Assembly: GCA_016928355.1 (NCBI GenBank)
Contig: JAFGKW010000045.1
Coordinates: 6,625 to 70,624, forward strand
DNA from: Methanomicrobiaceae archaeon
GTDB taxonomy: Archaea; Halobacteriota; Methanomicrobia; Methanomicrobiales; Methanomicrobiaceae
DNA length: 64,000 nucleotides
Direction of reading: 5' to 3'
Part shown: piece after piece, positions 5,557-18,431 of the stretch
Layout: each line of letters starts with the position of its first letter
Numbering within the stretch: position 1 is the stretch's first letter
Notes under the pieces: model-generated
The model's input: only the letters and a program-made list of their open reading frames with translations
Told to the model about the DNA's origin: nothing
Databases searched by the model: none
Translations under genes and position numbers: made by a program

Positions 5557-6141
5557 TTAATAGAGGATATTAACATTGTCAATCTGCCAGGGAGCACTTC
5601 TCCTGATAATCAGTGACATTGAGGATGTGGAAGTGAGTTCAAGCGAAAAATCCTCTCCCGGACCTATCTCCTCACCGGGAGTCAGGTTGACATAAACTGT
5701 ATACACCTCATTCTCCTCAAGAACAGTATCTCCGGTGGCGGTAGAGGGTTTTATACTTATAATGCCCCATTTCCCCTCATCTATCATCGAATCATAAAGC
5801 GGTTCGTTCGCATCGTAGATCCTGATATCGTCTTTTGTCGTCCAGGTAAGAACCATCTTGTCGAATGCGACATATTTACCACCAGGAGCAAGACCAACAT
5901 TGAATCTAATGATGCCTATCTCGTCATCGGCACGCTTTAAGCCATGTACATTTCCAAGAATTTCAAGAGCTGAACCGGTCTGCTGAAGGGCGGAATATGC
6001 CGTTCTCTCGGTCTGTTGTGTTGCAAAATATCCGGCTCCGATTACAGCAAAGGCAAAAACAGAAGCAACTACAACAAAAGCAATCAGTACTATCGCCGCT
6101 TCCAGGCCGGTAAAGGCCCCGCTCCGCTCCCGCAAAATCAT
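5557..6141 (-). CDS. flaB: Archaellin (archaeal flagellin)
   Basis: Class III signal peptide 'ERSGA/FTGLEAAIVLIAFVVVASVF'. Confidence 0.9.
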   Translation of the reverse strand: MILRERSGAFTGLEAAIVLIAFVVVASVFAFAVIGAGYFATQQTERTAYSALQQTGSALEILGNVHGLKRADDEIGIIRFNVGLAPGGKYVAFDKMVLTWTTKDDIRIYDANEPLYDSMIDEGKWGIISIKPSTATGDTVLEENEVYTVYVNLTPGEEIGPGEDFSLELTSTSSMSLIIRRSAPWQIDNVNILY

Positions 6142-6348
6142 GACAATTGAACTCCGACAAATCCGGATTGTCGTTTTTATATGTATTATAACCTGACAAT
6201 TTATTTAGGCATTATTGTATATGCACTTAATCGGGAACAAAAAAATGAAAAATATTCGTTTTAATAAAGCTTTTGAAATGATATATTTCGCAGGGAAGGC
6301 AGCCGTTGCATATTTTTTTTCACAAGTAAAGAGATGTTCTGATATTTT

Positions 6349-8286
6349 TCATATGAACAGGTTGAATATCAGCAGCGAAATAATCAGCATAACCGCCACA
6401 TGCTTGATTCCGGATTTTACCATTCCTTCACCCATCTGCCCTGCAATAATTCCTGAAAAGATCGCCTGGATAAGACAGGTATGATACAGCAGCCGCCTGA
6501 AGACATCAATGTCCATCTCGGCAGCCATTGTAAAAGACGATGAGCCGGAGACCGAGGAACTTCCGGCAGTGACATTGCCAAGTTCCCCGATTATCTGGAG
6601 AAAGTTCGTATTAAGAACCGAGACTACGAAGATAAAGACGAAGAATGCCAGGTATATAATAACGGTATAGATGAACATCTCTCCGCCCCTCTCCTTTTTC
6701 AGTGTCTCGCTCATCCTCGCATCACCAGATGCAATACTCAGTACTTCTCCGATATCCCCGCTCATTTCACTCGCTTTGGTGATGAGCGTTACAGTCCTTG
6801 CAACAGCAGCGGTATTGACACGCTCTTCAAACCTGACAAGTGCGTCCCTGACACTCGCCCCCCATTCGAGATCCCTCTTAATCCTCCTGATCTCATAGGA
6901 GATAAGACCAAGATTTGCCTTAACAAGAACATCAATTGCACCGGCAAGAGTCAGACCCACCCTGTTTATTCCTGAGAGCCTGTCGAGAAAATCAGGAATT
7001 GAAGATTCAATTCCACGGAGTTTCCTCCGCCATAATTCAAAAAATAGCGCATATGGGACCACAATAATCAGCATTGCAATTATCAGGTGATCATCTATTA
7101 CATCATAATAGATCTCCGGATCCGCATATGCAGGAGTTAGAATGTACAGTACAATGAGATAGATCAGGAAGAGGGGGATCGTGAAGTACAGGGAACGGTT
7201 GGCATCAGTTATGAACCAATCAAGCGGATTTTTAATAAACGCACGGATTGCCTTCATCCTGTCATATCTGTCAAGCGCCCTGAAATTCTGTTCTTCACCT
7301 TCTTTCTCTTCGAGAACAACGTCATCGAACTGCTTCATTTCGACAATACGCGTGTACTTTTCAACGATCTCATCAGAAAGAGTCATCATATCGATGAAGA
7401 GGATGAATATACTCGCTCCTACGGGAAGTAGAATATATGTTATAACGCTCAGCTGCAGAACGGCTGAAGTCCCGACCATTCCCATAACAACCATTATTAT
7501 TATCAGGAAGAGCGGCCCGGCGACAAATACCGTGACATAGGACTCCGCAATTACCTGGAGTGTCGAGAGGAACTGCAGCTGCTCGAACCTTGCCTCCTCC
7601 TGGTACAGCCGAACCCTGCCTTCAAGATAATGGGCAATGTTTCCTCCGCTGCCTATAACCGATATAAGGTCCTCAAGAAAGTCCTTGAGTTTGGCCGAAG
7701 GGGTGGTCATGCTAAGATTACGGAGAGCTGTAAGAAGGTCATATCCAAAGTATTCGGCATCCCTCAGCACCTGCCTGAACTCGACTGCCACTTCCCCATA
7801 TACAGCTGCATTCTCTGATATAGACCTCATAATCTCCAGCATCTCAGCACCGCCCCTTCTCATGGCATACATATACGATACTGCATTATGAAGTGAGAGA
7901 TTGATCTTAGTTCCCCGCGATGATTTCTTAATTGCAGGATACTTCAACATCAGCCGGTAGGCGATTATCGTCGTCAGTACAAATATTAACAGAAATGTAA
8001 GCAGGCTGAAATTAGCCTGGTTAAGTTCGGGGACGTAGTATGAAGGTAAATGAATGTTGAATACATTGTAGATCTGTATTGATATTCTCGGGATGTATAC
8101 AAGGGAGGCAATAATGGATCCGGCAATCCCTATGCAAAAACCTGCGGCTAAGGCACTTATCAGGCATAACTGCATGAACCTGTAAAGCGTTATACCCATC
8201 CTTGCAGAGATCAGATCTGCATGGAGTTCGAGATATGCATCAGGATTCCTCTTCAGCCTCCAGCTGATATACCGGTCTACGATCAT
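6349..8286 (-). CDS. Type IV pilus/type II secretion inner-membrane platform protein (T2SSF, PilC/TadC-like)
   Basis: Two T2SSF-like halves, 'YGEVAVEF', 'TTPS..L..FL', multiple TM segments; overlaps the ATPase stop. Confidence 0.9.
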   Translation of the reverse strand: MIVDRYISWRLKRNPDAYLELHADLISARMGITLYRFMQLCLISALAAGFCIGIAGSIIASLVYIPRISIQIYNVFNIHLPSYYVPELNQANFSLLTFLLIFVLTTIIAYRLMLKYPAIKKSSRGTKINLSLHNAVSYMYAMRRGGAEMLEIMRSISENAAVYGEVAVEFRQVLRDAEYFGYDLLTALRNLSMTTPSAKLKDFLEDLISVIGSGGNIAHYLEGRVRLYQEEARFEQLQFLSTLQVIAESYVTVFVAGPLFLIIIMVVMGMVGTSAVLQLSVITYILLPVGASIFILFIDMMTLSDEIVEKYTRIVEMKQFDDVVLEEKEGEEQNFRALDRYDRMKAIRAFIKNPLDWFITDANRSLYFTIPLFLIYLIVLYILTPAYADPEIYYDVIDDHLIIAMLIIVVPYALFFELWRRKLRGIESSIPDFLDRLSGINRVGLTLAGAIDVLVKANLGLISYEIRRIKRDLEWGASVRDALVRFEERVNTAAVARTVTLITKASEMSGDIGEVLSIASGDARMSETLKKERGGEMFIYTVIIYLAFFVFIFVVSVLNTNFLQIIGELGNVTAGSSSVSGSSSFTMAAEMDIDVFRRLLYHTCLIQAIFSGIIAGQMGEGMVKSGIKHVAVMLIISLLIFNLFI

Positions 8287-10478
8287 AGAAATGCCTTCTT
8301 AAGATCACTCAGATTCTCCAACACATTTGCGGAATTGATTGCATATGCCTGGAATACCTTTGTTACGTTTATATAATCGATAATGCCCTGGTCGTGCATT
8401 GCCTGTATGATCTTCTGCCGCCTGACAATCTCTTCCGACATCTCCTCCTTGCTCCACCCCCTGACTTCCATTATTTTTGTATAAACCTGTGACCTCCCGG
8501 AATAGGAATGGATGTCAGAGACCGGATCATAATCGAAAACAGTGTTAACACGGAGGTTGCCTGTGCCCGGATCGATTCCCGCGATCTCGACGACCTCAAG
8601 GGCACGCCTTACCCTCTCCTTTCCCCTGAATACGAGCGCCTGAACGGTGACGATATCAAGCGCCTGCACCATGTTCCTTGGGACGTTCAACGGAGCATTC
8701 TCAAGCCTGTGAATAGCTGCATCGACACTGTTGGCATGGAGAGTCGAGAAAGTCGTATGGCCGGTATTCATAGCCTGGAAGAGAGTCTGGGCCTCAACAC
8801 CCCTCACTTCACCTACGAGTATGTACTCGGGTCTCTGCCTCATTGCAGCCTTTAGGAGATCGAACATATCTATCTTCGACCCCGAACTCTCTGTGACGGA
8901 CTCCCTCGTAACCGTTGCAATCCAGTTTTCATGGTAGAGGGTGATTTCCCTTGTGTCCTCTATGCTGACAATCTTTGAAAGCGGCGGGATAAACAGGGAC
9001 ACCGCATTCAGGGAGGTTGTCTTTCCGCTTGCAGTCCCGCCGACAAAAAGCAGGCTCTTGTTGTTCTCGATAGCAAGCCAGAAGTACACGAGCTGGTCGA
9101 CATTGAATGTTCCGTAGTCGATAAGTTCAATTGGGCTGAAAGGCTCTTCACGGAACTTTCTTATCGTAAACGAGGTCCCCCTGCTGGTGACCTCCTTTCC
9201 GAGAGTCAGCTGGAGACGTGACCCGTCAGGGAGGGTTGCATCAAGCATCGGCTGGGATACGGATATGTGCTTTCCGGATCTCTGGGCGAGGAGAATAGCA
9301 AGCGAGTATAGAGTATCCTCATCAAAGATCACATTTGTCCTGATGTTTCTATACTTCCGGTGGTACAGGAATATTGGTATCTCCGACCCGTCGCAGGATA
9401 TATCCTCGATGTTTGGATCGATCATTAGAGAGTCAAGCCTTGACCACCCAAGGAAGTTCCTGAAGAGATAATACTGGAGTTTAAAGAGGGTATCATCCTC
9501 AACCTTAACATTATACTCATGTAAAAGGCGACTCATCTTCTCCATTAAAACTTTCTTTTTGTCCTCCAGTATCTCCTCATCGGTCAGGATAAGGACATCT
9601 CTCATATCCTCATAGAGCCTTTCGGCAAGTTCCAGTTCGAATCTCGATAGTTTGGGTTCATAGAGCAGGTACTCCTCAAGGTTTGTAGAAGGGTTCCTTG
9701 CGATAACAACCCTGGAACGGCCCTCATGAATCCAGTAATCCTCCACAATAGTGTAACCATCCGGAAGAACAGGCTCTACAAGAGACCCGTCTGTCGCAAA
9801 GTCATATATCCGGATCGATTCAACCTTTTTCTTCAGGAATAAAAATCCCTTCTTCTTTTCCTCAACGACAACCTTCTTCTTCCTTCCCGGCCTGCCTATA
9901 TCAGCTGATCCCTTATCTCCTGCTCCCGAAGATATGGAAGTGCCGGTTATTGTATCCTCATCCGCAGAACGAATTGTTATTTCTATAGGTTCTCCTGATC
10001 CAGGTCCGGCCTCCGGTTCTGTGTAGGTCTCTTCAACAGGAACGGGCTTCTCCTGATCTTCCTTTCCGGCAGGTTCTATAGCTGCAGTTTCTTCTTCATC
10101 TCCGGAAGGCGTCACCTGAAAGGGAGTTCCCTGCTCCTCTTCGGTAACAACAATATCTTCATTGACCGCTTTTTCTTCATCACCGCCGGTGGTCTGAATA
10201 GGGTTTAAGACTTCCTCTTTCCTTTCAGCCGGCTCTATAGATCCCGGTTGAACCGGTTCAGCTGTTGGAATAATAAATTCTCCGGCAGAATCAGGGGATT
10301 CAGTAATTGCATCTTTTTTGTCTCCGGGTTCTCCGCTTTCGCCTTCAGGGGAATCCTCAGCACCGGCATCCTCCTCTCCCAAGACCCCTCTGATAAGTTC
10401 AGACAGATCCGGCTCTCCGGTTTCTTCACTGCCGGATTTTTCCTTCTTCTCTTTTTTATGATAACCGGGAAAAGGCAT
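8283..10478 (-). CDS. Type IV pilus assembly ATPase (VirB11/PilB/FlaI family) with long acidic N-terminal extension
   Basis: Walker A GGTASGKTT, 'SIEDTRE', 'RQRPEYILVGEVRG', His box 'TGH...STLHA'. Confidence 0.94.
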   Translation of the reverse strand: MPFPGYHKKEKKEKSGSEETGEPDLSELIRGVLGEEDAGAEDSPEGESGEPGDKKDAITESPDSAGEFIIPTAEPVQPGSIEPAERKEEVLNPIQTTGGDEEKAVNEDIVVTEEEQGTPFQVTPSGDEEETAAIEPAGKEDQEKPVPVEETYTEPEAGPGSGEPIEITIRSADEDTITGTSISSGAGDKGSADIGRPGRKKKVVVEEKKKGFLFLKKKVESIRIYDFATDGSLVEPVLPDGYTIVEDYWIHEGRSRVVIARNPSTNLEEYLLYEPKLSRFELELAERLYEDMRDVLILTDEEILEDKKKVLMEKMSRLLHEYNVKVEDDTLFKLQYYLFRNFLGWSRLDSLMIDPNIEDISCDGSEIPIFLYHRKYRNIRTNVIFDEDTLYSLAILLAQRSGKHISVSQPMLDATLPDGSRLQLTLGKEVTSRGTSFTIRKFREEPFSPIELIDYGTFNVDQLVYFWLAIENNKSLLFVGGTASGKTTSLNAVSLFIPPLSKIVSIEDTREITLYHENWIATVTRESVTESSGSKIDMFDLLKAAMRQRPEYILVGEVRGVEAQTLFQAMNTGHTTFSTLHANSVDAAIHRLENAPLNVPRNMVQALDIVTVQALVFRGKERVRRALEVVEIAGIDPGTGNLRVNTVFDYDPVSDIHSYSGRSQVYTKIMEVRGWSKEEMSEEIVRRQKIIQAMHDQGIIDYINVTKVFQAYAINSANVLENLSDLKKAFL

Positions 10479-10687
10479 TTTTCATAACTCCAGAGTATAT
10501 TATAAAATCCTGAGAGGATATTAATTGATTCTGATTTAATAAAAGATAATCATTTATATATATATTACCATAATTTGGCAGTCTGCCCATGCTTTTAAAC
10601 GCCGCAATTATATTTACTTCCTTCCACCCGGGACCGGTTTCAGCAAAATCTTTACATAAAAGGCAGATGAATGTATCATTAATTAAT

Positions 10688-11518
10688 ATGGATGATAATC
10701 TGAGGCAGCGGATGCCGACCGGGATCTCATCACTTGACCCTGTGCTTGACGGCGGGGTTCCACCTGGTTCGGTTGTGCTGCTCGTCGGGGAACAGGGAGC
10801 CGGGAGCAGAGAATTTGTTCAGAGCTCACTCATCTACCTCTCCAAGATGAAAGAGGCGGGTCAAAACGGAGAAAACAGGATTCTCCCCGAACAGATGATC
10901 TATATCTCATTTACAAGATTAACCTCATCGATAATCAATGAGATCAAGACTTCATACAAGGATGATCTTGTCGAGGGAGTAGAAAACTATATTTCATTTA
11001 TCGACCTCTCAAATTTTTATTTTGAAAAGAGCGTTGTACCAAGGGGATGGTACTCACAGTCCTCACTTCTTTCATCTATGGATAAAACAAAGAAATCTGA
11101 CAGTCTAATCGCAGAACTTACAAACAGCCTCAGGAAAATAAAAAATAAGAGCCTTATAGTCGTAGACTCACTAACCGATCTGAATATTACAATCACCGGA
11201 CCGGAAGACTGGAAACAGCTCATAGGATTCCTGAGAGGTCTGCAGAGGGTTGCGAAGACATGGAGATCCACAATATACATACTTGTCTCCGAAGGCATCT
11301 TCGAAAACAACAAACTGATGGAGGTTGCGGACTGCTGCGATGCAATAATCGACTTCAGGTGGGAGGAGACCACGGGAAGAAAAAGACAGAGAATAATGTA
11401 CTTCGTGAAATTCAGCGGAGCCATGCCCCATCTTGAGGAGAACGATCTGGTTAAATTCGCATCAAAGATCACGACCGAGGCAGGATTCGAGGTCAGCAAC
11501 ATCAGAGTGGTTATATGA
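10688..11518 (+). CDS. KaiC/RAD55-like RecA-superfamily protein with degenerate Walker A
   Basis: 'MPTGISSLDPVLDGGVPPGS' start, P-loop reads GEQGAGSREF (no Lys); start moved to ATG 10688 (ORF track begins at 10589). Confidence 0.85.
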   Translation: MDDNLRQRMPTGISSLDPVLDGGVPPGSVVLLVGEQGAGSREFVQSSLIYLSKMKEAGQNGENRILPEQMIYISFTRLTSSIINEIKTSYKDDLVEGVENYISFIDLSNFYFEKSVVPRGWYSQSSLLSSMDKTKKSDSLIAELTNSLRKIKNKSLIVVDSLTDLNITITGPEDWKQLIGFLRGLQRVAKTWRSTIYILVSEGIFENNKLMEVADCCDAIIDFRWEETTGRKRQRIMYFVKFSGAMPHLEENDLVKFASKITTEAGFEVSNIRVVI

Positions 11519-12213
11519 AGAAGAACAGGGTCAAAATGGGCATCGAAGGCCTGGACGATATGATGGAAGGCGGCCTCATTGAAGGGAGCATATGTGCAAT
11601 CATAGGGACATACGGTACAGGAAAGACCACCTTCGCTCTCCAGTTTGCATACGATGGACTCAAGAACAACGAGACGGTAGTATACATCAGTCTTGAGGAG
11701 AAGAAAGAGAGTATATATGAAAAGATCCAGGACCGCGGATTTGACCTTGAGAAATACCGTGACCTGACGCTCTTTGTCATTAAACTCGATCCGACGGACT
11801 TCAATCTCTCGATTAACAGCATCAGGAATGAACTGCCGGAACTTATCTACGAAATCGGCGCAAAAAGAGTGATAGTAGACCCGATATCACTCTTCGAGGG
11901 TCTCTTCGACGACGAATCCCAGAGAAGGCTTGAGATGTTCAGGCTCGTCGAGATTCTCCGTGACCTGAAATGTACTGTCATGATGACGAGTGAACATAAC
12001 AGAAACGATGCATACGCCAGCAGGTACGGACTTATCGAGTATCTCTCGGACACGGTTGTGGTCCTGAAATACATCCGCCCCGACGACCTCTCCGAGGTCC
12101 ATACCGCTGTTGAGGTCGTCAAGATGAGAAGCTCGAATCACTCCCGCGAGATCAAACCCTACGAGATCCAGGAAGATCGGATCAACGTATACTCGGAAGC
12201 CAGTGTCTTCTGA
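11515..12213 (+). CDS. KaiC-like ATPase (single domain)
   Basis: GIEGLDDMMEGG, Walker A GTYGTGKTT, 'SLEE', 'VKMRSSNHS'. Confidence 0.92.
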   Translation: MKKNRVKMGIEGLDDMMEGGLIEGSICAIIGTYGTGKTTFALQFAYDGLKNNETVVYISLEEKKESIYEKIQDRGFDLEKYRDLTLFVIKLDPTDFNLSINSIRNELPELIYEIGAKRVIVDPISLFEGLFDDESQRRLEMFRLVEILRDLKCTVMMTSEHNRNDAYASRYGLIEYLSDTVVVLKYIRPDDLSEVHTAVEVVKMRSSNHSREIKPYEIQEDRINVYSEASVF

Positions 12214-13023
12214 GGATTTTTCTTTTTTTGTCCGGTTGTCTGAACTGGCATTCTCTGCAATCCGGCTGCCGTTGTTGTCACAGGTGCAGGTGAAAAGCAA
12301 AATTGAAAATAATTCTAATCTTACCTTGCCTCCCAGTTTTTCTTTGAACCGCAAATAGATTTTGGCAATTATACCGGAATTATAACAAAGTAAACAATAT
12401 GCCTGTTTTGTTCCGTTCGTTGTTATCATCATCCGATGCATGGGCTCAACCCCATACGTGCCGTTCATCTCCGCATCAGGACAAACTGATGTGATATCCG
12501 CATATTTGATAATTGTTTTCCGGTCTATGCCAAATAGGTAAAACAGATGTGATTTGATCTGCACCGAATCCTCTGTAAAAATAAAAACAGCAGTCAGATT
12601 CCAACCCCAGATGAAAAATACAATCATTCCGAATATTACAATAATCAAACCAAAATTTACGTCATGGTTCATGAATTGAAAGATTATTGCAATTACAGAC
12701 AATAATATAAAAAACATAAAAAAAACTGAAACTCCGATTGTTGGTTGAAACAGCAACTGTTTCTCGTCTTCCTGTTCAGCCTCCCTGATCTCTTCTTCCT
12801 CCATTTCTTTCGTCAGGGGTTCCGTACAGTATTGGGAATACAGTTTCATTCCCAGGGTAATCAGGAGTAACAAACCAGCGGTACGTAAGAAAATCCCGGC
12901 GGTTTCACCAGGACCCGTTACGCCGGAAACAAATCCGCCAAGAAACCCTAAAAGGAGGATAACACAGAAAATTATCAATACATTCTTTATAGTTTCTTTC
13001 CTCTCTATCATCTCCGACAACAC
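11887..13023 (-). CDS. Membrane protein, paralog of 13122-13832; the natural end near 12304 appears lost (read-through)
   Basis: First 239 aa align with the neighbouring paralog; codon 240 (TCA, 12304-12306) aligns with the paralog's TGA; the extension is antisense to the kaiC-like gene. Confidence 0.7.
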   Translation of the reverse strand: MLSEMIERKETIKNVLIIFCVILLLGFLGGFVSGVTGPGETAGIFLRTAGLLLLITLGMKLYSQYCTEPLTKEMEEEEIREAEQEDEKQLLFQPTIGVSVFFMFFILLSVIAIIFQFMNHDVNFGLIIVIFGMIVFFIWGWNLTAVFIFTEDSVQIKSHLFYLFGIDRKTIIKYADITSVCPDAEMNGTYGVEPMHRMMITTNGTKQAYCLLCYNSGIIAKIYLRFKEKLGGKVRLELFSILLFTCTCDNNGSRIAENASSDNRTKKEKSSEDTGFRVYVDPIFLDLVGFDLAGVIRASHLDDLNSGMDLGEVVGADVFQDHNRVREILDKSVPAGVCIVSVMFTRHHDSTFQVTENLDEPEHLKPSLGFVVEETLEE

Positions 13024-13121
13024 ACCATAAAAAATTCTATTGGGTTTTTAGTATCTCTTTCATTGAATTCATCTGATAATCCAGTCATGGTTTGCAAATG
13101 TTGGAAAGAATAAAGGAGACA

Positions 13122-13832
13122 TCAGTCTAATTTTACTTTTACTTTATTCCCCAGTTTTTCTTTGAACCGTAACCAGATTTTAGCGATTATATCAGGATTA
13201 TAACAAATCAAACCGTACGTCTCTGTTTTTCCCTTCGATGTAATCATCATTCGATGCATGGGTTCAACCCCATAAGTACCGTTCATCTTTGCATCAGGAC
13301 TCACTGATGTGATATCCGCATATTTTATCACGGTTTTCCTGTCAATGCCAAGGAGGTACAACAGATGTGATCTGATTTGGACTGAATCCTCTGCGAAGAC
13401 GAAAACTGGCATCAGATACCAAAAGTAGAGCCCGAATCCAATCCCCAAGAAAGAACAAGAAATCATCCATAAAACATCGTTATTGAAGATCGCAACAATA
13501 AGAAACGATATCCCCAAAAATATCATAAACAGAAAACCAATATATCCTCCGATAGTTGGTTTAAACAGCAATTGTTTCTTCTCTTTTTGATCAGTTTCTC
13601 TGCTCTCTTCATCCTTCATCTCCTGCGCCAGGGGTTTATAATAGATTTGATAAATCAATCTTGTAACCAGACCCGTTAAAACCAGAAAAGCCCCGGTGCG
13701 TAGAAATACAGTCGCTGTTTCCAGAAGACCCGGATCCTTTATGCCAAAAAAAGATGCCCACGGAATAGCAAAAAGCACAAAAACACAGAAAATTATTAAT
13801 ACATTTTTTATGATTTCCTTCCTCTCCATCAT
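13122..13832 (-). CDS. Membrane protein (about 4 TM plus C-terminal soluble, possibly PH-like, domain)
   Basis: Hydrophobic segments, GGTGAAG RBS before ATG 13832; near-identical C-terminal domain to the adjacent paralog. Confidence 0.8.
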   Translation of the reverse strand: MMERKEIIKNVLIIFCVFVLFAIPWASFFGIKDPGLLETATVFLRTGAFLVLTGLVTRLIYQIYYKPLAQEMKDEESRETDQKEKKQLLFKPTIGGYIGFLFMIFLGISFLIVAIFNNDVLWMISCSFLGIGFGLYFWYLMPVFVFAEDSVQIRSHLLYLLGIDRKTVIKYADITSVSPDAKMNGTYGVEPMHRMMITSKGKTETYGLICYNPDIIAKIWLRFKEKLGNKVKVKLD

Positions 13833-13857
13833 CTTCACCAGTCTCGAATAAAAAAGA

Positions 13858-14136
13858 TTATATTTCTGCATCAGGTGCGGTTACCGGCGGTACCGGTGAT
13901 GCGGCCGGATCGTAGACCAGTGATAAGTAGCGTGCCGAGAAGACGAAAAGGAAGGGGTAGAAGGCGAGGTTGATTACCCAGCCGATGAACAGGATCATCG
14001 CGAAGATTGAGAGCACAAAGAAATAGATGATTGCGGTTACCAGTTTTAATGCCGTAAGAAGAACTGCAAAAGGATAATATTCTTTTTTCAGATCGTGATT
14101 TATACAGACGACAAAAAATCCTTCTAGATCTTCCAC
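13858..14136 (-). pseudogene. Probable C-terminal remnant of a DUF4013-like membrane protein
   Basis: 'ILFIGWVINLAFYPFLFVFSARYLSLVYD' resembles, from recall, the end of methanomicrobial DUF4013 proteins; only 92 aa. Confidence 0.4.
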
Positions 14137-14148
14137 TTCAGTTCCCTC

Positions 14149-15264
14149 TCAGAATGACGGCGGTTTGAAAGCCCCGTCGAAATGATACCTGACTATTTCC
14201 CGGATCTCCTCGTCATTGTTGCCGTCCATAGTTATGAGCGCATTATAAGTCTTTTCTATGTTCTGACTGGAGAACGCTTCACTAAGAGCAGGCAGGTTTT
14301 CCAGAACCAGACTGCAGATCTCCTCAAGACTGGCAAGATATCCTTTTTTTGTCTCATTGGAATATGATATTCCCAGCATACTGAAGACGTTTCTGGCCGG
14401 GATGACAATCATGTTCCGATCCCGAATGAGTTCTTCCCGTCCTTTGATGAAAGTGGAGCTGGAAATATAGGGGGCAATGAAAAAATAAAGAGATGCGGAA
14501 TCAGGGCTTTCTTGGTGAATGAAATAACTCAGGTATATTTCCCTGCCAAAATAGATATCCACGGAATCCCGGGAAACATTGTAAATAATACGATCGTGTG
14601 AGTGCAACGGAATTATCGTCTTCAGGATTTTTCCAAGTATTCCTCTGGGCAACACCCGCTGGCTGGGCCGGGACATAAGATCCCGCAACATCTCGTTATA
14701 TTCCCGGATTAGTTCCTTGGCACTTTTCTGCGGGGGTGGATTTTTAGCTATTTCTTCCAGGTACCTGCGACTCTCCTCTTTTGTCCAGTAATCGATAAGT
14801 TTCTTTGATTCTGTGTTGTAGATTGCAGATACCTCCCCGATGTGTTCGGGCTTAAACAGGTCAAGGATCTCAGGCAGGTGTTTTTTTATCTCGCCGGACA
14901 GGCGGTTTATTTCCTGTACCGTCCCCCTGTTATCAGGGAGACACCTTACAAATTCTCCGTCAACAAAAACGGGAGGCATCGGGATATGGATATTGAAGAC
15001 CGAAAAAATCATACGGGCGTCAAAAGATATATCCGTTTTATTGGCCTTGATCGAACAGTGCACGATCCCGTTCTCTTTTTCCCCCTTCTCATAAAACCTA
15101 AATAAAATATCAATCTCCGGTGAACTCAGATGGACGGAAATTGGCCTGTCATGTTCCCGGTATTCGATCATCTCCAGCCGGAAACCCCCGTCAGCCGTCA
15201 GCGGCATGACCGCTGACGGGATCTGCTCAAAATATCCCGAATCTTCTGTTTTATTCATATGCAT
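14149..15264 (-). CDS. Hypothetical soluble protein with internal duplication (candidate immunity protein)
   Basis: 371 aa, GGAG RBS, 27 bp downstream of the Cys-rich protein gene; two similar halves. Confidence 0.75.
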   Translation of the reverse strand: MHMNKTEDSGYFEQIPSAVMPLTADGGFRLEMIEYREHDRPISVHLSSPEIDILFRFYEKGEKENGIVHCSIKANKTDISFDARMIFSVFNIHIPMPPVFVDGEFVRCLPDNRGTVQEINRLSGEIKKHLPEILDLFKPEHIGEVSAIYNTESKKLIDYWTKEESRRYLEEIAKNPPPQKSAKELIREYNEMLRDLMSRPSQRVLPRGILGKILKTIIPLHSHDRIIYNVSRDSVDIYFGREIYLSYFIHQESPDSASLYFFIAPYISSSTFIKGREELIRDRNMIVIPARNVFSMLGISYSNETKKGYLASLEEICSLVLENLPALSEAFSSQNIEKTYNALITMDGNNDEEIREIVRYHFDGAFKPPSF

Positions 15265-15291
15265 TGGCTCCTGGTTTTCCCTTTTTTTTAC

Positions 15292-17028
15292 TCATATCAA
15301 AGCACACATAATTATTGTATTGATAATCTCGGCTGCGGCAGGGATCTCCACTTCATAAAGATATCTTGTCACACCTGTCGGCCCCGTTACAGGAACACGT
15401 TCTTCAGTCACAACACCTTTGAACTCATCCTTTAAGATCTTCATTTCTCTGGGAAAACCAGTTTCTGATTCCCAGAAAGGGTCATTAAGATTAGTTGGAG
15501 GTCTTTCGGTGACAAAAATCCTCCCCCCGTTTTCAGCCGCATCTTTTCCTGCAGCCCTTGTAAACAGGTCATTCCATTTCTGTATTTGTTCTTCAGTTAA
15601 TCCCCCTACATTGATATTGAACTTGTTTGCACCGACATCATCAGCAACCATTTGATAACTGTCGGCATTATCAATTCCAAGATATCTCCCGAATACGGTC
15701 TTGCCTATGGATGGATCAAATTCCCCACCGGCAACCTTCACAACACCGATGTTGTTGTAATAATTAAGCCAATTTTCTAACGTCGGATAGATACAGCCAC
15801 TACAGCCCGAACTACAGGTAGGACATGACACAGACGATGATAACATACATGAATCAAGATCATCCACACTTGGACAACATGCCAGAACCCCATTCACGGC
15901 CCCGCAAGTTGGGCGGGTACAACCTGCACATCCTGCCTCGTCCGAAGAATTTTTACATTCCGAAAGTCTCTCTGCACTCGGACAACAGGTATATATCCCG
16001 TTATAATCTCCCCCGCACATCAGTGTCGGTGTGACCGGCAGAACATCAAATTCGCATGATGTATCATCAGACCACCACACATAATGCCCGACATCCAGTC
16101 CAGTCATGTAAAACAGATAAGATGGTGCTCCTTCGCGTGGGCAGCTGCACGAGCCCCAGTCACAAAAGCAAAGGTTAGTCCATATATCACCGTTTTGGAC
16201 CGAAAGCCCCAATGCTCCTTCACCAGGATAACCATCGGAATATGATGTTTCGCCAACCGTGATGTCGGAACATGAACAGCTACGCGGAGTAGGGACTGGA
16301 GTAGGTGTTATTGTCGGGGAGGTGGATGTAACCGTAAAATTACAGGAATCCCACTGGCTTCCCAAAGCAGAAAACCAGGTGTAACTTCCGGCATTATCAA
16401 TTGTATAATAAACCTGACCGTTCTCGCCAATACCACAAGTCATACCTCCGCCCCATATACCCATACAGAGATCATTGGAAGGATCGTCGCTGGGATAGAG
16501 TGCAATATATTCGCAATCAGAAATCGGAGTGTAATATGAAGTTTCGCTGACATTGATATCTGCACAGGAATCATAAGTACACACGGTTTCGGTGGGAGTC
16601 ACAGTAGGAGTTGGATTTGTACTAATTGTCATCGTGAATTCGTCAACAGGGTGACTTTCACTTATCCAGTAATCCCATTGTTCGCAATTATAGGTCCCGT
16701 CATCAATGATATAATAAGAACCGGATATTGTAATCGATTCTTCAGGCACAAATATAACTTCTGCTCCTCCGTCAACAGAATTCACAAAAAGCTGACCTTC
16801 AGACCAATAATAGATATCATCTATTCCATATGGAAAACTTTCAGCCGCATAAGCTGCTGGTGTATACCAGGTACTGTATACTGAATTTCCTTCACTATCT
16901 ATCATTATATCTGTCGAAGATGCGTTTACTATTCCAGTCACGCAATTCGCAATTATAAAGAGAAGTAATAATTTTTTAATAGACTAAGCCCCCTTCATCA
17001 TTATTATTTTCAATCCTGTCGACTTCAT
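15292..17028 (-). CDS. Secreted Cys-rich repeat protein with PT linkers and a distinct C-terminal (toxin-like) domain; in-frame TAG in leader
   Basis: 549-aa ORF from GTG 16941; the upstream frame gives MKSTGLKIIMMKGA*SIKKLLLLFIIANCVTGIVNA, a signal peptide interrupted by TAG at 16984-16986. Confidence 0.75.
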
Positions 17029-17212
17029 CCAGATCCGCTGAATCACTCAGGCCTGATAAATATCCTGACCTGCAAGCCGCCCCTTAAGAGATTGATAATT
17101 GTAAGTTAAAATTTTATCATATTAAATATTACGTTTTATTAAAAAATTATGAATAATTTAATTGTAACTATTTTTTGAGCGTTGTTTTATCAAACCATCC
17201 CGGGGCCGATCC

Positions 17213-17470
17213 GGGCATAAGCCCCGTCATTCTTTATTAATTTTAGAGGGAGGGGGAGGTTTCCCCCTCCCTATTACCCTCTCCCTCATCGCGATAAGTC
17301 GCAAAGGGGATGGACGAGCATCCCCTTTTGCTCCAGGATAAACTGTTTCCAGATTCAATATCCGAATAAGGGCATTCTCCCGGTCGAGGCCACCCGGTCG
17401 GGTGGCGTCCAGACCGGGCTATCATGATTGCGCAAATTCGCGTAGCGAATTTAGCAAAGGGCTTATGCCC
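17213..17470. repeat. Hairpin-rich non-coding element with 12-bp terminal inverted repeats (MITE/REP-like or structured RNA)
   Basis: GGGCATAAGCCC (17213-17224) / GGGCTTATGCCC (17459-17470); four internal stems. Confidence 0.65.
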
Positions 17471-17549
17471 AATCAAATTTACAAAATGTATTATAAATGC
17501 TTCAAAGCAATCTGATACAATTATAACCCCCAAATCCCAATTTTAAATA

Positions 17550-18431
17550 ATGACAGGACGTATATCACGCGGGTGGCGGCTTTTTAAGGCCACATTCGGA
17601 ATTCTAAAAGCCGAAAAAAGCCTGGTGCTTTTCCCGGTAATTTCTGCAGTTTTAAGTCTGCTTGTTCTGGTAGTCTTCATCTTTCCTGCACTGGCACTAT
17701 TCAGTTCAACCGGTGCCGATACCGAAAGCTGGGGTATTACCCAGTGGGCGATGTGGGTGGCATTCATCTTCGTGTTCTACTTCATCACGTACCTGATTAC
17801 GATCTTTTTCAAGACTGCCGTAATCTCGAATGCCACTGAAGTCATGAACGGAAACGATCCGACAATGGGGCAGGGTATCGGCATATCGGCATCCCATATC
17901 GGAAAACTCGCAATATGGGCCCTGATACAGGCGACAATCGGACTGATTCTTAGTATGATCCGCAGCAGGGACAACCTGATTGCAACCATTTTATCTGCGT
18001 TTCTTGCTGCTGCATGGGAGCTTGTCACCTTCTTCGTGATTCCGGTCCTGATATTTGAGAACCAGGGCGTCCCCGGATCGGTTAAGGAATCATGGAATCT
18101 CTTCAAAAAGACATGGGGAGAGACGGTGGTCTCCGGGTTCTCCTTTATTGTCCTTTATATTCCGGCATTCATAATGATGTTCATCGCAATTGGCTCCCTC
18201 TTCACCGGAATTGGTGCACTGAGTATGGCAGCAGTCGGCCTTTTCCTCATAATTCTTGTTGCAACAGGCGTCCTCGCCTCGACACTGCACGGAATTCTCG
18301 TCGCACTCCTCTATAACTATGCAAGGACTGGAGAGATCCCGGGCATGGTCGACAGGGACCTTATCGAGAATGCATTCGTCGAGTCGAAGAAAGAAAAGAA
18401 AACGGCCGTTTCAGGCGGTGGAAATATCTGA
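17550..18431 (+). CDS. Conserved multi-pass membrane protein (DUF6159-like)
   Basis: 'GRISRGWRL', 'FFVIPVLIFE', 'SW.LFKKTWGE' pattern. Confidence 0.8.
   Translation: MTGRISRGWRLFKATFGILKAEKSLVLFPVISAVLSLLVLVVFIFPALALFSSTGADTESWGITQWAMWVAFIFVFYFITYLITIFFKTAVISNATEVMNGNDPTMGQGIGISASHIGKLAIWALIQATIGLILSMIRSRDNLIATILSAFLAAAWELVTFFVIPVLIFENQGVPGSVKESWNLFKKTWGETVVSGFSFIVLYIPAFIMMFIAIGSLFTGIGALSMAAVGLFLIILVATGVLASTLHGILVALLYNYARTGEIPGMVDRDLIENAFVESKKEKKTAVSGGGNI

Follow-up and report, generated by a model that had tools for sequence, protein, structure and literature searches.

A probable polymorphic toxin–immunity cassette with a cysteine-rich carrier in a Methanomicrobiaceae archaeon

Is a cysteine-rich protein of a methanogenic archaeon the carrier of a polymorphic toxin, and do the genes behind it confer immunity? 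The question is raised by a 64,000-nucleotide stretch of DNA from a Methanomicrobiaceae archaeon (hereafter the window; positions 6,625 to 70,624 of contig JAFGKW010000045.1, assembly GCA_016928355.1), in which five minus-strand open reading frames (ORFs), all co-oriented, are flanked on one side by a KaiC-like gene (11515-12213) and on the other by a DUF6159 gene (17550-18431). An earlier note, made from the sequence without database searches, had read this block as a candidate secreted toxin, a soluble immunity gene, a gene remnant and paralogous membrane genes inserted between conserved genes. The block is indeed an insertion, because its flanks adjoin in two genomes of the same genus: the flank ends (window 12227 and 17329) are only 149 nt apart in G002, and the corresponding flanks are ~420 nt apart in G003, which has a copy of the cassette at another site, 3' of a prefoldin-like gene and a tRNA-Asp. 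We conclude that the locus is very probably a polymorphic toxin–immunity cassette.

The evidence begins at the C-terminal tip of the first ORF (the carrier, P0001), where the cysteine-rich stalk switches, as previously described, to a domain of ~165 residues that contains the motifs quoted in the note and a single cysteine. A search with this tip against 1.84 billion representative proteins gave four matches: itself, a G003-type homolog (84%), P0005 (34%, E = 1.1e-13) and P0006, a repetitive protein whose match (E = 3.6e-4) was taken as chance and excluded. P0005 is an Rhs protein in which the match sits behind the core motif DPSG, and four Rhs proteins encoded in the window's order match its Rhs core at 59-64% identity. 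Searching with the 371-amino-acid (aa) protein encoded next to the carrier revealed, in genome G578, an ORF with a similar C-terminal domain (hhalign P = 0.002) and another N-terminal part. The G578 tip matched the extreme C terminus of CdiA in a Paraburkholderia contact-dependent inhibition locus (E = 0.01) that also contains bcpO and a ShlB/FhaC transporter gene, and from the Paraburkholderia tip the searches reached a Leptotrichia haemagglutinin (E = 6e-15), 21 further proteins and 14 bacterial loci. The domain closes its frame in all 14 loci, two of which are short fragments, and the bacterial carriers include haemagglutinin-type proteins and one Rhs protein (L044); PF13332, which we take to be a haemagglutinin repeat, occurs in 8 of the 21 further proteins. 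Matches of the tip searches to plasmid helicases and methylases (E>=0.08) were taken as chance and dropped.

This archaeal–bacterial link is not circular, because it is recovered both by a profile built from bacterial tips alone and by profile–profile comparison with a shuffling control. Among 10,279 ORFs, the best match of the bacterial-only profile was the G578 tip (E = 5e-5), with P0005 next (E = 7e-4), and hhalign aligned the window and G003 tips with 19 bacterial tips (two truncated ones having been dropped) at P = 9.5e-6 and a score of 37.8, compared with a maximum of 19.6 among 100 column shuffles. Homology to Rhs and CdiA C termini, the main prediction of the note, was thus found, but no LXG carrier was identified among the tip carriers. 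By these sequence comparisons the tip is common to at least four kinds of carrier, namely the Cys-rich protein, an archaeal Rhs protein, the G578 carrier and bacterial CdiA-like or Rhs proteins. Its five invariant residues (P0001 numbering) are G431, S441, G485, P494 and E512, the last encoded at 15447-15445 and unchanged in 23/23 alignment rows. No Pfam or NCBIfam model matches any member of the family. Contigs from genomes, metagenomes and viruses yielded no loci when scanned with archaeal alignments, one of 401 genomes of the phylum was positive (the window's own), and a scan of phages with a bacterial tip gave none. Sequence searches of the PDB gave one chance-level match (E = 0.23) and otherwise none, and none of the cassette proteins exceeded curated cut-offs in Pfam, NCBIfam or PADLOC scans.

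The second line of evidence is the gene for the 371-aa protein, which, as had been noted, follows the carrier after 27 bp (15265-15291). Its two domains resemble each other (hhalign 94%, P = 1.5e-7) and are separate ORFs in G003 and G578; in G578, homologs of both halves directly follow the tip ORF. Across 251 genomes of the order, the tip was found in three and the partner in the same three, always directly downstream. The protein, for which Pfam gave no match, has neither leader nor membrane segment and would therefore guard the cytoplasm. A model of the tip–partner complex scored 0.71, compared with 0.07 for the best control, and the score mark used was reached by 116 of 157 solved pairs and by 2 of 215 mismatched pairs. 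The runs share at least 27% of their contacts, with a partner confidence (predicted local distance difference test, pLDDT) of at least 69, and part of two rows was misplaced in the partner alignment used for the model. The model supports, without proving, that the 371-aa protein binds the tip, and together with the genomic linkage it makes this protein the likely immunity protein. Genes downstream of the bacterial tips bear no likeness to either half. Support for the toxin–immunity–orphan layout proposed for the locus comes from this co-occurrence, from the complex model and from the Rhs genes that precede homologs of the membrane paralogs, described below.

What the tip does can be approached through its predicted fold. 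Before folding, we had already inclined to a class resembling TIR domains and deoxyribosyltransferases, from the pattern of strands and helices and the late invariant glutamate. A model from the 23-row alignment reached a pLDDT of 87.8 and a predicted template modelling score of 0.83; a first fold from a 3-row alignment (pLDDT 59.5) was discarded after it, along with its winged-helix matches (Z<=4.6) and Foldseek list. Structural search with the 23-row model placed TIR/SEFIR domains (9), deoxyribosyltransferases (7) and the ADP-ribosyl cyclase (ARC) toxin of Pantoea, 9ro8 (1), in 17 of the top 50 rows and the same three classes in 7 of the top 12; two of the nine TIR/SEFIR labels are our presumption. 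The ARC toxin (Z 4.1, root-mean-square deviation 4.3, 99/131 aligned) tied with the TIR and deoxyribosyltransferase folds. In the ESM Atlas, the sole named cluster for a bacterial member was ADP-ribosyl cyclase (score 0.90, 183/256 features; PF02267 on 45% of its members). A search for PF02267 itself was positive in 0 of 4 genomes, including G000 (the window's own), G003 and G578, although this was a weak search in which the family never rose over the cut-off in controls; ARC-family sequences were obtained from 0/4, 0/5 and 0/251 genomes.

According to the available text of PMC12605009, the Pantoea toxin needs W273, E299, W323 and E356, and a last glutamate is described as essential both there and in Tac1 (E573; PMC12356396). 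Judged by spacing only, the second tryptophan is kept in bacterial members of the tip family and shifted or absent in archaeal ones, and the first tryptophan and glutamate are not evident; in the bacterial member P0023, the tryptophan and glutamate at 61 and 94 are 33 residues apart, as are W323 and E356. Because the other ARC residues are not evident, we do not file the tip as Tox-ARC. The structural model, the invariant glutamate and the language-model match weakly suggest an ARC/TIR-like NAD(P) glycohydrolase, and, given a toxin–immunity cassette, NAD(P)-cleaving chemistry is reasonably probable.

The reading that we favour, at slightly better than even, is that an exported Cys-rich carrier delivers a tip that kills neighbouring cells by NAD(P) cleavage and is neutralised by the 371-aa protein. 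The carrier would leave the cell through Sec, its Cys modules would bind the target surface or stabilise the carrier against it, and the tip would be released and then enter the target cytoplasm. There it would act as an alpha/beta N-glycosidase of the ADP-ribosyl cyclase, TIR or nucleoside deoxyribosyltransferase type with E512 as the predicted catalytic glutamate, and the 371-aa protein would neutralise it in the cytoplasm. The gene remnant and the two membrane genes would be leftover immunity genes of earlier cassettes. In the window's genome, where the carrier starts with ATT, the carrier may be weak or silent and mainly an immunity array may be left; in the G003 homolog both the ATG and the complete leader are present.

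Several observations weigh against this reading. The best structural Z was 4.2, under the 7-8 given by the search tool as usual for models without a match; Foldseek with the tip model gave nothing at E<=0.001; the window's own domain stayed below 0.9 in the ESM Atlas and had no named cluster; PF02267 matched none of 23 tip members at E<=5; and only the last of the four Pantoea ARC residues has a clear counterpart in the tip, judged by spacing with no ARC sequence aligned. The window's domain itself ranked only fourth against the bacterial-only profile (E = 0.76). The co-occurrence of tip and partner rests on three related genomes and carries no statistical test, one of three complex runs was low (0.71, 0.71, 0.28), and the best contacts fall on a linker of the partner (residues 180-196) for which G578 has no clear equivalent. 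The window's carrier begins at an ATT codon, and no route of the tip into a target cell is evident. Finally, the same stalk with another tip, a check suggested in the note, was not found in 61 genomes, 10 selected genomes, one metagenome scan and one protein search; what was seen is the opposite pattern, one tip on different carriers.

The genomic evidence for a cassette also fits a tip with another activity, either on another N-glycosidic substrate (nucleotides or RNA) or nuclease-like, an alternative that we regard as somewhat unlikely. It draws on the low structural scores, on the three of four ARC active-site residues that have no clear counterparts and on an invariant set in the tip (G, S-Y, N, E) unlike that of ARC; it has to contend with two methods that, applied to two family members, arrived at the ARC/TIR/deoxyribosyltransferase class, and with the W-E spacing of P0023.

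Less probable still, and improbable overall, is a domesticated surface or secreted enzyme, in which a domain of toxin origin on an archaeal exoprotein would have an extracellular role that kills no cell, such as that of an ecto-NADase or a cyclase. Such an enzyme has a precedent in Nac1, which the available text of PMC12356396 describes as a non-toxic ARC enzyme with a signal peptide and without the second glutamate, but Nac enzymes are defined there by having no immunity neighbours, whereas a cytoplasmic partner adjoins the tip in 3/3 genomes. That partner is predicted to bind the tip, and orphan immunity-like genes pile up behind the carrier, both of which count against it; domestication would suit a carrier with no Rhs shell or entry domain and a conserved tip (84%) on a variable N-terminal part, the opposite of classic polymorphism. 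It would also suit the insertions and the hydrophobic tail of the window and G003 tips, which are missing from bacterial tips. The tail comprises the carrier's last 15 residues (15295-15339), nearly identical in G003 and absent from all other members. A structural or S-layer-type protein with unrelated neighbours and a chance tip likeness is very improbable and, as far as sequence comparison can tell, largely refuted: archaeal surface proteins often carry PT linkers and Cys-rich modules, and direct identity to the bacterial tips is low (17-28%), but the tip matches an Rhs tip at E 1e-13 and the bacterial tips by shuffle-controlled profiles, and it is patchily distributed (3/251), sits at different insertion sites and has a linked partner. 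The features of the block are taken in turn below (Table 1).

Table 1. Features of the inserted block, in window coordinates.
Feature	Position	Strand	Basis or remark
Inserted block	12228..17328	.	No counterpart at the matching site in G002 and G003
Carrier–toxin ORF (P0001)	15292..16980	-	562 codons from ATT 16980
Likely ribosome-binding site (AAGGGGG, 16995-16989) followed by the in-frame TAG (16986-16984)	16984..16995	-	Upstream ATGs cut off by the TAG
Signal-peptide-like leader, residues 1-20	16921..16980	-	Hydropathy and eye; resembles the leader of a G003 Rhs protein
Module 1	16621..16920	-	1 Cys, aromatic and acidic; unrelated module in its place in the G003 homolog
Module 2	16327..16587	-	6 Cys; 75% identity over 77 aa to a P0004 module
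Module 3	16039..16284	-	Cys-containing; 12-aa stretch in common with module 2
Two CCPS-containing Cys-rich repeats	15793..16017	-	Retained by the homolog in G003
C-terminal toxin-family domain, 165 aa (residues 398-562)	15295..15789	-	Homology to Rhs/CdiA tips
371-aa soluble protein, likely immunity	14149..15264	-	Two ~165-aa domains in tandem, distantly related to each other
Remnant of a 183-aa gene	14033..14125	-	Inside a 92-aa ORF (13858-14136)
Membrane protein, 249 aa, likely orphan immunity gene	13122..13871	-	Rhs context of homologs
Paralogous membrane protein, 239 aa	12304..13023	-	56% identical to the 249-aa protein

By sequence, the carrier is a mosaic protein. Its closest homolog, in G003, has another module at the N terminus but retains the CCPS repeats and the tip, at 82% identity over 249 aa, and the protein cluster of that homolog includes P0007, a 366-aa protein named Mpet_0965 at NCBI, from Methanolacinia petrolearia DSM 11571. 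The note had counted three repeat modules separated by PT linkers; the linkers are present, but only modules 2 and 3 share any sequence (12 aa, E = 0.004), and module 1 is unrelated to them, no relative of it having been found. The two CC-P-S repeats that it described are 47% identical to each other over 19 aa (E = 6e-5). P0004 shares module 2 but has no toxin tip, and its C-terminal Cys repeats are 54-56% identical to the N terminus of a 1415-aa signal-peptide Rhs protein in G575. P0001 itself has no Rhs or YD repeats and no Rhs core in Pfam and NCBIfam scans. The carrier's cysteines, which the note placed in a disulfide-rich stalk with Cys-knot repeats, might equally well hold metal in an anaerobe.

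The start of the carrier gene differs from that given in the note. The ATG at 17028 runs in frame into the TAG, which had been overlooked, and the signal peptide that had been proposed corresponds to a signal-peptide-like leader, judged by hydropathy and by eye, that begins at an ATT, 8 nt 3' of the AAGGGGG run. The first ATG, GTG or TTG start is GTG 16941, which gives a protein of 549 aa with the leader missing and a best 11-residue hydropathy of 1.1, compared with 2.9 for the leader from ATT. In the G003 homolog a comparable purine run precedes an ATG and the full leader is intact. Since ATT is a non-standard start, the window's copy may be weakly expressed or silent. Amber read-through was considered and rejected: TAG is an ordinary stop in this genome (147/1295 long ORFs), none of the 37 tRNAs found has a CTA anticodon, and the purine run directly precedes the ATT.

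Behind the 371-aa gene lie the remnant and the membrane paralogs that the note had recognised. Over 94 nt the remnant matches a portion of the 183-aa gene at 82% identity; that gene is intact behind the G003 cassette. Homologs of the membrane proteins occur in 6 of 250 other genomes, directly behind Rhs genes with Gly/Ala-rich hydrophobic tips in four of these (G003, G290, G376 and G575) and without a preceding Rhs gene in two (G487 and G442); the arrangement behind an Rhs gene occurs twice in tandem in G575, and in G376 they stand behind an orphan Rhs tip. Judging from this context, the two genes are likely to encode membrane proteins that confer immunity to another toxin, one belonging to an Rhs family whose tips are Gly/Ala-rich and hydrophobic. 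The block contains no orphan toxin tip. Of the 251 genomes of the order, 10 have Rhs cores; none was found in the window's own genome, which is 84% complete.

One family of Rhs proteins with signal-peptide-like leaders (L028:9633-13880, L030:9565-14007, L031:6410-10453 and L032:8967-13382) has cores that are 57-78% identical, four unrelated N-terminal modules, related Gly/Ala-rich hydrophobic tips and a gene of the membrane family after each, so that its variable part is the N terminus, not the tip. Three Rhs-core proteins of other architecture (L067, L068 and L069) are 2337-2743 aa long, and the genes after them presumably encode peptidoglycan-binding-like N termini. One genome of the order contains ten Rhs cores in ~66 kb (G564:C1:56726-122943).

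The composition and surroundings of the block were also considered. The window's contig (C54 of G000) belongs to a genome of 1.93 Mb, and the block is AT-richer than this genome, as claimed, but modestly so: its GC content is 0.422 compared with 0.456, 12.6% of 3326 equal-sized genome windows are equally low, and the 371-aa gene lies at the genome mean (0.456). GC content at third codon positions is 0.36-0.42 in the carrier and membrane genes, compared with 0.52-0.64 in seven flanking genes, and is not low in the 371-aa gene. A second, separately assembled contig from the probable source run has 0 differences across 12550-17600 at a depth of 28; it probably derives from the same reads and adds no independent biology. 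Adjoining the cassette (17244-17463) is a ~220-bp dispersed repeat with 48 blastn matches in its own genome and dozens in four same-genus genomes, also close to the G003 cassette; it is likely to be a small mobile or intergenic element. The flank at 5557-12213 has two KaiC-like genes, labelled by domain scan, and genes that we take to be archaellin-like, FlaJ-like and FlaI-like, so the cassette likely adjoins a locus for surface-filament assembly. Elsewhere in the same genome (G000:C3:1-3411), a second polymorphic-toxin-like array, its upstream part off the contig end, contains two ORFs with a pre-toxin-like motif as in the G578 carrier, different tips and small genes after each.

Among described systems, the cassette resembles Sec-exported polymorphic toxins such as Neisseria MafB, which, in the available text of PMC3482391 (Zhang et al. 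2012), combine, as the cassette probably does, a signal peptide, a lineage-specific N-terminal part, an exchangeable C-terminal toxin domain, an adjacent immunity gene and downstream orphans. It differs from MafB in its archaeal host, in an N-terminal part that is variable and Cys-rich where MafB-N is conserved, in having no orphan toxin cassette in the block and in a tip family without a Pfam model. Rhs polymorphic toxins are recorded in the same source for the methanogen Methanosarcina acetivorans, and the cassette shares with methanogen Rhs toxins the tip on the archaeal-type protein P0005 and the membrane paralogs behind signal-peptide Rhs genes; unlike them, its carrier is a 562-aa Cys-rich protein without Rhs/YD repeats. 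With Tox-ARC, as far as Tac1 (PMC12356396) and the Pantoea toxin 9ro8 (PMC12605009) are covered by the available text, it has in common a small alpha/beta tip on CdiA and Rhs carriers, a late invariant glutamate and weak structural and language-model similarity. It is set apart by having no PF02267 match, no evident first tryptophan and first glutamate, and a partner without a Pfam match in place of the usual Imm74. In Gram-positive ABP systems, too, according to the available text of PMC13460014, the polymorphic toxin is secreted and the immunity protein cytoplasmic, and no injection machine is named. ABPs need a co-secreted serine protease; the block encodes none, and its carrier is acidic and Cys-rich.

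We found no paper on Mpet_0965 or naming the tip family, and none on such systems in Methanomicrobiales, although these loci may be listed by Makarova et al. 2019 or in the Additional File data of Zhang et al. 2012; the nearest match for Rhs toxin–immunity in Methanomicrobiales was a paper on Thermococcales. The word 'archaea' does not occur in the available main text of PMC12356396 and PMC12605009. Predicted archaeal polymorphic toxin systems were without experimental characterisation as of 2021, according to the available text of PMC8416519, and the tested archaeal pairs that we found are haloarchaeal ones of injection systems (available text of PMC11566945). A short, Rhs-free, Cys-rich mosaic carrier with a tip from an unnamed family appears to be new.

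The locus offers a small, clonable candidate toxin–partner pair from a methanogen, with a candidate catalytic residue and an intact homolog (P0007) in a named cultured strain, and it defines a family of toxin tips, used by CdiA and Rhs proteins of bacteria, for which neither Pfam nor NCBIfam has a model. Tentatively, and with considerable doubt, we suggest a wider picture of protein warfare in this order of methanogens, fought with small Sec-exported toxins that need neither an Rhs shell nor an injection machine. Their targets would be picked by shuffled Cys modules, and their warhead would be an unnamed NAD-cleaving family that stands between the ADP-ribosyl cyclases and the TIR enzymes and is also found in CdiA and Rhs toxins of bacteria. 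If true, a selective anti-methanogen toxin and its route of entry would bear on methane ecology.

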